Part shown: positions 7,872 through 51,613 of the stretch, one piece after another
How the letters are laid out: the number at the start of each line of letters is the position of its first letter
Numbering within the stretch: the stretch's first letter is position 1
Origin: Escherichia coli
GTDB taxonomy: Bacteria; Pseudomonadota; Gammaproteobacteria; Enterobacterales; Enterobacteriaceae
Strand: one strand, 5' to 3'
Assembly (NCBI RefSeq): GCF_003334785.1
Contig: NZ_QOWV01000016.1
Length of the DNA: 64,000 nt
Translations under genes and position numbers: made by a program
Notes under the pieces: model-generated
Seen by the model: only the letters and a program-made list of their open reading frames with translations
Told to the model about the DNA's origin: nothing
Database searches by the model: none

Positions 7872-7984
7872 TTAAGAAAGTATATAAAAAACAATATGTC
7901 GTTATATAAATAAGGAAATTGCACTGCATCATGGCATTTCATAATATGCGTTAATTGTTCTTTTTTATATTCTTTGAGGGAAAT

Positions 7985-25234: not shown

Positions 25235-26059
25235 ATGATTTTGACTCCCATACGACGATATGGGGCGATGATTCTTATGTTACTCACTCTGGTGTTTTCG
25301 AGTGAGGTGTTAGCGAAGACGCACACAACAACAGCGAGTCAAAAGTCCCACTTAACTAAAGCTAGTAATAAACAGGTAAGCAGTAAACAAGAGTATTCTC
25401 GCAATAGTGCAAAGAGTAGTTCACTTCCTGATTTGCGAAAATACCCTTCCGGAACACCAAGGAAAAAGGCGTTTCTCCGGACCGTAATGCCTTACATTAC
25501 CAGCCAAAATGCGGCCATTACTGCGGAACGTAACTGGCTCATTTCAAAACAGTATCAGGGCCAATGGTCACCTGCTGAGCGTGCGCGTCTGAAAGACATC
25601 GCCAAACGCTACAAGGTGAAGTGGTCCGGTAATACGCGAAAAATCCCGTGGAATACCTTGCTTGAACGCGTAGACATTATCCCCACCAGTATGGTGGCGA
25701 CGATGGCTGCAGCAGAAAGCGGTTGGGGAACGTCGAAGCTGGCGCGCAACAACAACAACCTGTTCGGCATGAAATGCATGAAAGGACGTTGTACCAATGC
25801 GCCAGGTAAAGTGAAAGGGTACTCACAGTTTAGTTCTGTCAAAGAATCGGTGAGCGCCTATGTCACTAACCTGAATACGCACCCGGCTTACTCTTCGTTC
25901 CGTAAATCGCGTGCGCAGCTGCGTAAAGCGGATCAGGAAGTGACTGCCACAGCGATGATTCACAAGCTGAAGGGCTACTCGACCAAAGGGAAGAGTTATA
26001 ACAACTACCTGTTCGCAATGTACCAGGATAACCAACGGTTAATCGCGGCGCATATGTAA
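25235..26059 (+). CDS. bax: Bax protein (glucosaminidase/FlgJ-like domain)
   Basis: 274-aa ORF recognised as Bax. Confidence 0.85.
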   Translation: MILTPIRRYGAMILMLLTLVFSSEVLAKTHTTTASQKSHLTKASNKQVSSKQEYSRNSAKSSSLPDLRKYPSGTPRKKAFLRTVMPYITSQNAAITAERNWLISKQYQGQWSPAERARLKDIAKRYKVKWSGNTRKIPWNTLLERVDIIPTSMVATMAAAESGWGTSKLARNNNNLFGMKCMKGRCTNAPGKVKGYSQFSSVKESVSAYVTNLNTHPAYSSFRKSRAQLRKADQEVTATAMIHKLKGYSTKGKSYNNYLFAMYQDNQRLIAAHM

Positions 26060-49477: not shown

Positions 49478-50176
49478 ATGATCATAAAAAAAAGCGGTGG
49501 TCGCTGGCAGCTAAGCCTGCTGGCGAGCGTGGTAATCAGTGCCTTTTTTCTCAACACAGCTTACGCCTGGCAACAAGAATATATCGTTGATACGCAACCC
49601 GGACTTTCCACAGAGCGTTACACCTGGGATAGTGATCATCAACCTGATTACAACGATATTTTGTCGCAACGTATTCAAAGTAGCCAAAGGGCGCTGGGAC
49701 TGGAAGTCAATCTGGCGGAAGAAACCCCTGTGGATGTGACCAGCAGTATGAGTATGGGCTGGAATTTTCCTTTATATGAACAGGTTACAACCGGCCCGGT
49801 CGCGGCATTACATTACGATGGCACAACCACCTCGATGTATAACGAGTTTGGCGACAGTACTACCACGCTGACCGATCCGTTATGGCATGCCAGCGTGAGT
49901 ACCTTAGGCTGGCGTGTTGACTCCCGGCTTGGCGATCTCCGACCCTGGGCGCAAATCAGCTATAACCAGCAATTTGGCGAGAATATCTGGAAGGCGCAAT
50001 CAGGCCTGAGCCGGATGACGGCGACAAACCAGAACGGCAACTGGCTGGATGTCACCGTAGGCGCTGATATGTTGCTCAATCAAAATATTGCCGCCTATGC
50101 CGCGCTAACTCAGGCAGAAAATACCACTAATAATAGCGACTATCTGTATACGATGGGGGTTAGCGCCAGATTTTAA
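49478..50176 (+). CDS. yhjY: outer-membrane autotransporter beta-barrel domain protein
   Basis: 232-codon frame from ATG 49478 (SD ggag 49466..49469); signal peptide then barrel ending ...GVSARF. Confidence 0.85.
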   Translation: MIIKKSGGRWQLSLLASVVISAFFLNTAYAWQQEYIVDTQPGLSTERYTWDSDHQPDYNDILSQRIQSSQRALGLEVNLAEETPVDVTSSMSMGWNFPLYEQVTTGPVAALHYDGTTTSMYNEFGDSTTTLTDPLWHASVSTLGWRVDSRLGDLRPWAQISYNQQFGENIWKAQSGLSRMTATNQNGNWLDVTVGADMLLNQNIAAYAALTQAENTTNNSDYLYTMGVSARF

Positions 50177-50290
50177 CGTAACAGTCACAATTGAAACCAT
50201 TAAATAACAATAGTTGTGGCGATAGTGGGTGCTAACTTACCAAATAATAAATTTGGTGAATAATTGTCGCGTCATTCATTCCTGAACTAA

Positions 50291-50321
50291 GGCATTTCAT
50301 TCCGTTCTGATGGCATTTCAT
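50291..50321 (+). promoter_or_regulatory. direct repeat GGCATTTCAT-N11-GGCATTTCAT upstream of yhjX (probable LytTR-type YpdB site)
   Basis: Exact 10-bp repeats at 50291..50300 and 50312..50321, about 85 bp upstream of the yhjX ATG. Confidence 0.6.
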
Positions 50322-50404
50322 GCCGTTTTTCCCCAGGCATAAAGTGCACTTCGTTATGGTTGTCGGCAGAGATTTTTCCTTTTTATTACTGCAGGAATAC
50401 TGCC

Positions 50405-51613
50405 ATGACACCTTCAAATTATCAGCGTACCCGCTGGCTGACACTCATCGGTACTATCATTACCCAGTTTGCGCTGGGGTCGGTTTATACCTGGAGCCTG
50501 TTTAATGGCGCGCTTTCCGCCAAGCTGGATGCGCCGGTAAGCCAGGTCGCTTTCTCTTTCGGCTTGTTAAGTCTGGGGCTGGCAATTTCGTCTTCTGTTG
50601 CGGGCAAATTACAGGAACGTTTTGGCGTTAAACGCGTCACCATGGCTTCCGGCATTTTGCTGGGATTAGGCTTCTTCCTGACAGCGCATTCTGACAACCT
50701 GATGATGCTGTGGTTAAGCGCCGGTGTGCTGGTGGGACTGGCAGATGGCGCGGGTTATCTGCTGACGCTCTCTAACTGTGTGAAGTGGTTCCCGGAGCGT
50801 AAAGGTCTGATCTCCGCGTTCGCTATCGGTTCTTATGGTCTGGGTAGCCTGGGTTTCAAATTTATCGACACGCAGCTGCTGGAAACGGTCGGTCTGGAAA
50901 AAACCTTTGTGATTTGGGGAGCGATTGCGCTGTTGATGATTGTTTTCGGCGCAACGTTAATGAAAGACGCACCAAAACAGGAAGTGAAAACCAGCAATGG
51001 TGTGGTGGAGAAAGATTACACGCTGGCAGAGTCGATGCGTAAACCGCAGTACTGGATGTTAGCGGTAATGTTCCTGACCGCCTGCATGAGCGGCCTGTAC
51101 GTGATTGGGGTAGCGAAAGATATCGCCCAAAGTCTGGCACACCTTGATGTGGTTTCCGCAGCCAATGCAGTCACTGTTATTTCCATCGCCAACCTTTCAG
51201 GTCGTCTGGTGCTGGGTATTCTGTCTGACAAAATCGCCCGTATCCGTGTTATTACCATTGGTCAGGTGATATCGCTGGTGGGTATGGCGGCCCTGCTGTT
51301 TGCACCATTGAATGCAGTGACGTTCTTTGCAGCGATTGCCTGCGTGGCATTTAACTTTGGCGGCACTATTACCGTCTTTCCGTCACTGGTCAGTGAGTTC
51401 TTTGGCCTCAATAACCTGGCGAAAAACTACGGTGTGATTTATCTCGGTTTCGGTATCGGTAGCATTTGTGGTTCGATTATCGCCTCACTGTTTGGCGGCT
51501 TCTATGTGACCTTCTACGTGATTTTCGCCCTGCTGATTCTGTCATTGGCGCTTTCTACGACGATTCGTCAGCCAGAGCAGAAAATGTTGCGTGAGGCGCA
51601 TGGCTCCCTTTAA
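50405..51613 (+). CDS. yhjX: MFS transporter (oxalate/formate antiporter family)
   Basis: Recognised N-terminus MTPSNYQRTRWLTLIGTIITQFALGSVYTW at 50405 (402 codons). Confidence 0.9.
   Translation: MTPSNYQRTRWLTLIGTIITQFALGSVYTWSLFNGALSAKLDAPVSQVAFSFGLLSLGLAISSSVAGKLQERFGVKRVTMASGILLGLGFFLTAHSDNLMMLWLSAGVLVGLADGAGYLLTLSNCVKWFPERKGLISAFAIGSYGLGSLGFKFIDTQLLETVGLEKTFVIWGAIALLMIVFGATLMKDAPKQEVKTSNGVVEKDYTLAESMRKPQYWMLAVMFLTACMSGLYVIGVAKDIAQSLAHLDVVSAANAVTVISIANLSGRLVLGILSDKIARIRVITIGQVISLVGMAALLFAPLNAVTFFAAIACVAFNFGGTITVFPSLVSEFFGLNNLAKNYGVIYLGFGIGSICGSIIASLFGGFYVTFYVIFALLILSLALSTTIRQPEQKMLREAHGSL

Follow-up and report, generated by a model that had tools for sequence, protein, structure and literature searches.

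The repeat and its surroundings

Within the 64-kb stretch of DNA analysed here (the window), the intergenic region of interest lies between yhjY, the upstream gene, which ends at 50176, and yhjX, which encodes an MFS transporter (Table 1); both genes flank the repeat according to the RefSeq annotation of identical E. coli genomes. The region is present in 5423 of the 5426 complete RefSeq genomes of E. coli, the species to which the window belongs, and ypdA and ypdB are located outside the window.

A pattern search and a script found GGCATTTCAT twice in this region, at 50291-50300 and 50312-50321, with the 11-nt spacer TCCGTTCTGAT between the copies, and the coordinates and letters of the perfect 10-bp direct repeat given in the preliminary description were exact. 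The distance from the end of the repeat to the yhjX ATG at 50405 is 83 nt, in agreement with the roughly 85 bp that had been claimed. In register, the similarity extends beyond the 10-mer as GGCATTTCAT(T/G)CCGTT, with 15 of 16 positions shared. A search for intergenic repeats returned a longer imperfect pair with a 25-bp offset (50272-50285 and 50297-50310), and the 10-mer pair was absent from its output.

By itself, the 10-bp repeat stands out only mildly. The window has eight exact direct repeats that are 10 bp or longer and start no more than 40 bp apart, compared with 1.9 +/- 1.3 in simulated sequences (first-order Markov), and a single further copy of the 10-mer is found in the window, at 7933. 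Since the repeat itself is weakly surprising, the case for its function rests on conservation and on published experiments.

Table 1. Positions of the observed and predicted elements of the yhjX promoter region in the window
Feature	Position	Strand	Remarks
Stretch matching the SPR fragment of the literature, whose length follows the YpdB DNase I footprint	50268..50325	.	String match; PMC4847170
Unit 0, degenerate third copy of the motif	50270..50282	+	CGTCATTCATTCC; exactly 21 bp upstream of site A
YpdB site A	50291..50303	+	Published 10-mer GGCATTTCAT, 50291-50300; conserved core GCATTTCATTCC, 50292-50303
Spacer of variable sequence separating the 13-nt units A and B	50304..50311	+	Published 11-nt spacer corresponds to 50301-50311
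YpdB site B	50312..50324	+	Published 10-mer, 50312-50321; conserved core GCANTTCATGCC, 50313-50324
T-run just 3' of site B	50326..50330	+	50326-50329 at 1.93 bits per column
Unit C, putative inverted copy of the motif	50336..50348	-	Minus strand TGCACTTTATGCC; 13.1 bits with the A+B matrix
Putative -10 element TATGGT	50355..50360	+	TAtnnT conserved
yhjX coding sequence (MFS transporter, regulated gene)	50405..51613	+	402-aa translation; RefSeq yhjX in identical E. coli genomes

Correspondence with the published YpdB operator

In an exact string match, 50268-50325 was identical to the 58-nt core of the 'yhjX YpdB bs' oligonucleotide (PMC4847170), and the claim that the repeat is the YpdB site of yhjX was thereby borne out base for base. 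We are highly confident that the repeat is the published, experimentally mapped operator of YpdB (PyrR) in the yhjX promoter of E. coli, and no feature of the sequence speaks against it. Behr, Heermann and Jung 2016 (PMC4847170) gave the two 10-mers the names YpdB sites A and B, and a passage of the same paper credits gel-retardation and DNase I footprinting experiments to Fried et al. 2013. The phosphomimetic protein YpdB-D53E showed an overall affinity of about 10 nM in SPR, where two binding events were resolved, one of high affinity and slow and the other about ten-fold weaker and fast (PMC4847170). Transversion of site A led to the loss of all YpdB-D53E binding in SPR, and after transversion of site B one binding event remained; site B is the lower-affinity site with fast on/off rates, and it needs site A for its occupation (PMC4847170). 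The YpdB binding assay that the preliminary description had proposed as a check was therefore already published in vitro, in these results on the A and B mutants. According to the same paper, yhjX is the sole direct target of YpdB (PMC4847170). The YpdA/YpdB system was later renamed PyrS/PyrR.

In the published scheme, external pyruvate activates the kinase YpdA. Phosphorylated YpdB, of which D53E is the in vitro mimic, first takes the upstream site A with high affinity and slow on/off rates, and a second YpdB molecule then occupies the downstream site B with about ten-fold weaker affinity and fast on/off rates. In the authors' 'AB-BA' model, the occupation of site B would recruit RNA polymerase, and the quick release from site B would give a pulsed expression of yhjX. 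The start-to-start distance of 21 bp should place both copies on one face of the helix. The preliminary description had ascribed to the repeat a LytTR-type spacing of roughly one helical turn; the location on the same face of the DNA is retained, but the start-to-start distance corresponds to two helical turns, like that of other LytTR operators, and the 11 bp refer to the spacer alone.

It might be supposed that the main ligand of the repeat is not YpdB but another regulator, such as the YpdB paralogue BtsR (YehT), as the two LytS/LytTR systems of E. coli are interconnected and the induction of yhjX in uropathogenic E. coli has been ascribed to a BtsS-YpdB pair. However, YpdB stays the DNA-binding partner in this BtsS-YpdB cross-talk, the BtsR repeats ACCGCTTA and ACCACTCA are unrelated to GGCATTTCAT, and the BtsR fragment was the control in the SPR experiments, and we regard this alternative as very improbable.

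The YpdB operator at this position is already known, and the interpretation given in the preliminary description is correct yet adds nothing beyond the publications of 2013-2017. It shows that an experimentally validated operator can be recovered from raw sequence by a reader. The small gain of the present analysis consists of a wider phylogenetic footprint, a sharper motif, the invariant 21-bp phasing, the putative units 0 and C and a likely -10 element.

Conservation of sites A and B

To the window we added 80 orthologous yhjX loci from one YhjX scan of species-representative genomes, giving 81 promoters from genera of the family Enterobacteriaceae that include Escherichia, Citrobacter, Enterobacter, Buttiauxella, Kluyvera, Kosakonia and Klebsiella. 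Unit A carried 1.94 bits of information per column and unit B 1.81, as against 0.37 in the flank upstream of the units and 0.53-0.66 in the spacers; these values overstate the number of independent observations because the 81 sequences are related, but the contrast between units and spacers is unaffected. The best two-copy match had an 11-nt spacer in all 81 promoters, and their alignment showed no insertions or deletions from 50262 to 50330. The positions 50304-50312 carried 0.66 bits per column, and the spacer length was constant in the 81 promoters. The proposal that the motif should be conserved in the yhjX promoters of other enterobacteria thus agreed with the alignment, in which the units are kept together with their spacing.

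In the core of site A, nine of the 12 positions were invariant, and the other three held the majority base in 80, 74 and 80 of the 81 promoters; position 1 of the site was G in 52 promoters and T in 29. In site B, positions 1 and 5 were variable among the 81 promoters, the former being mostly G or T. The three bases 3' of the 10-mer were nearly invariant (TCC in site A and GCC in site B), and the constrained unit appears to be the 12-mer GCATTTCAT(T/G)CC and not the 10-mer.

Within the 64-kb window, a weight matrix derived from units A and B gave two neighbouring high scores here only. A lone near-perfect 13-mer, TGCATTTCATGCC, scores 23.0 bits at 25766-25778 on the minus strand, as good as sites A and B, and lies antisense in the coding ORF at 25235-26059; no second copy accompanies it at a distance of 21 bp, and it is probably due to chance. 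The YpdB motif has been found in yhjX promoters of other gamma-proteobacteria, the E. coli yhjX reporter was activated by three of the five species tested, and species without YpdA/YpdB show no YpdB motif (PMC5552118).

We also considered whether site B is the hairpin GGCAT-TTC-ATGCC followed by a T-run, serving as intrinsic terminator of yhjY or as some other structured element, in which case the repeat would be incidental. The RNA of 50306-50336 is predicted to form eight pairs (-8.1 kcal/mol, z = -3.1) followed by a U-rich stretch, and site B folds together with unit C at -13.5 kcal/mol (z = -3.1). However, 42 of the 67 distinct sequences lacked the pair formed by motif positions 1 and 13 and 27 lacked the loop-closing pair, in neither case with a compensatory change, and the hairpin reading of site B was rejected as failing this covariation test. 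Only three core pairs were constant, all of which are also part of the protein-binding motif, and site A, which has the same motif, is unfolded (-2.5 kcal/mol, z = +0.5). Moreover, a terminator scan of the region found none, and there was no credible Rfam match, a permissive threshold giving two matches at chance level (E = 0.6). We give little credence to such a structured element.

Chance duplication without function is less credible still: although short exact direct repeats are not rare, as illustrated by the counts in the window and by the lone 10-mer given above, 80 other species retain the two copies at precisely this spacing with drifting letters in the spacer, and this conservation, beside the published binding and mutagenesis data, excludes it. 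The conserved pair is best read as the YpdB operator.

Additional units around the operator

A degenerate third copy of the motif, unit 0, precedes site A in phase and shares G and TTCATTCC with it in register. Its information content is 1.78 bits per column, about as high as in units A and B, and TTCAT is invariant in all 81 promoters. In Atlantibacter, unit 0 reads GGCGTTTCATTCC, with one mismatch to the canonical 13-mer. Unit 0 is included in the footprint-sized fragment, which spans 22 nt upstream of site A and only 4 nt beyond site B. Unit 0 could hold, or help to position, a third YpdB molecule, which would account for the asymmetry of the fragment, with 22 nt before site A as against 4 nt past site B. 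Its score with the A+B matrix is just 1.75 bits, and the site A mutant, which retained unit 0 and site B, gave no binding in SPR (PMC4847170). Because of this low score and the non-binding mutant, an independent role of unit 0 is disfavoured, and a contact of YpdB with unit 0, if any, would be only dependent on site A.

Downstream of site B, the putative unit C is the fourth-best match of the A+B matrix in the 64-kb window. An inverted match of at least 8 bits, placed 23-24 bp after the start of site B, was present in 30 of the 81 promoters, many of them reading exactly GGCATGAAATGC. Unit C could act in repression, or form a palindromic operator with site B as the other half. It could let YpdB close the promoter at high occupancy, and it may add to the pulsing that is now ascribed to release from site B.

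Tentatively, the YpdB operator may be larger than two 10-mers and consist of a rigid three-unit array (units 0, A and B) with the inverted unit C, a proposal drawn from the sequence comparison that we consider possible but rather doubtful. If true, a three-unit operator with an inverted unit would be a modest extension of the two-site 'AB-BA' model, which includes neither unit. The 12-mer core, unit 0, unit C and the putative -10 element are unmentioned in the YpdB papers covered here, among them Behr et al. 2016 (PMC4847170).

The putative promoter and upstream elements

In the alignment, TAtnnT was conserved at the position of TATGGT, with T in 81, A in 81, T in 69 and T in 79 of the 81 promoters, and an invariant CAG is found at 50367-50369, 7-9 nt downstream of TATGGT. 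On this pattern, TATGGT is the likely -10 element, and the transcription start of yhjX would be near 50368, with a 5' UTR of about 37 nt. With TATGGT as the -10 element, about 7 nt would separate the end of site B from the -35 position downstream of it; the centre of site B would be at about -50, just upstream of the -35 position, and site A at about -71. The predicted position of unit 0 is about -92, and unit C would span roughly -32 to -20, between the putative -35 and -10 elements. The T-run that follows site B may be a part of the operator, or else a DNA bend or an UP-like element.

Downstream of the repeat, a consensus scan detected no canonical sigma-70 promoter, which would be expected if transcription depends on an activator. 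TAAAGT at 50340-50345 was considered as a -10 element and dropped, since it is not conserved across genera, unlike TAtnnT. The promoter suggested by the consensus scan at 50237-50264, upstream of the repeat, was also discarded, as a single site is the same as that obtained with shuffled sequences.

Two further elements were noted upstream of unit 0. A conserved element, GATAG[TC]N5CT[AC]AC, is present at 50221-50236 (here GATAGTGGGTGCTAAC) and upstream of yhjX in 65 of the 81 species; it occurred in none of 2000 shuffled controls and has no other copy in the window, and it stands at varying distances from the YpdB units. We regard it as a candidate site of a second factor. Compared by eye with the BtsR repeats and with the CRP, marbox, PdhR and IHF consensus sequences, it showed no convincing fit. 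Between this element and unit 0 lies a perfect 7-bp inverted repeat, ACCAAAT-N5-ATTTGGT (50238-50258), whose arms match fully in the window and in the closest Escherichia relative; other Escherichia species have degraded versions of it, and it is absent from other genera.

Variation within E. coli

A 71-bp region of the promoter was found at an identity of at least 95% in 5397 of the 5426 complete E. coli genomes, 3571 of which were at least 99% identical. In ATCC 25922 and Ecol_244, which stand for the 1826 genomes with 95-99% identity over this region, site A reads TGCATTTCAT, with T and not G at the equivalent of 50291. Because site A starts with T in these strains, the perfect match between the two copies is shortened from 10 to 9 bp in at least some E. 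coli.

In E. coli DX6 (NZ_CP126345.1, 3221-3988), site B is interrupted by an IS1 element with the 9-bp target duplication TGGCATTTC, corresponding to about 50311-50319 of the window. The insertion puts some 770 bp between site A on one side and site B with the promoter on the other, and yhjX is presumably uncoupled from YpdB in this strain.

Comparison with other LytTR systems

The closest known system is the pair of sites A and B at yhjX of E. coli K-12, which is the same locus with the same motif, 11-nt spacer and target, and identical over 58 nt. The operator of the paralogous LytTR regulator BtsR (YehT) in the yjiY/btsT promoter has the same 21-bp period, with ACCGCTTA, 13 nt and ACCACTCA, but differs from that of YpdB in its unrelated 8-nt motif, its spacer of 13 nt compared with 11 nt, and its target. 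In our reading of the published oligonucleotide, the BtsR fragment too has a third degenerate copy, GCCGCTCA, 20 bp before ACCGCTTA, and a three-unit layout might be common to both LytTR regulators of E. coli.

Outside the Enterobacteriaceae, LytT of Bacillus subtilis binds the pftAB promoter at two 13-nt boxes 8 nt apart, again with a 21-bp period (Charbonnier et al. 2017, PMC5626966). Both boxes are required, and the authors liken the site to that of YpdB (PMC5626966). Like YpdA/YpdB, this is a pyruvate-responsive LytS/LytTR system controlling a single pyruvate transporter operon; it differs in that its host is a Firmicute, PftAB belongs to another transporter family (LrgAB-like), and CcpA overlaps the -35 element (PMC5626966).

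More generally, the operators of AgrA, ComE, PlnC and VirR consist of two repeats of 9-11 nt placed 11-13 nt apart, and flanking DNA aids binding (PMC4847170); the family has no common consensus sequence. The yhjX repeat shows the LytTR arrangement, with two direct repeats (unit of 12-13 nt), a fixed 11-nt spacer and a period of about 21 bp.
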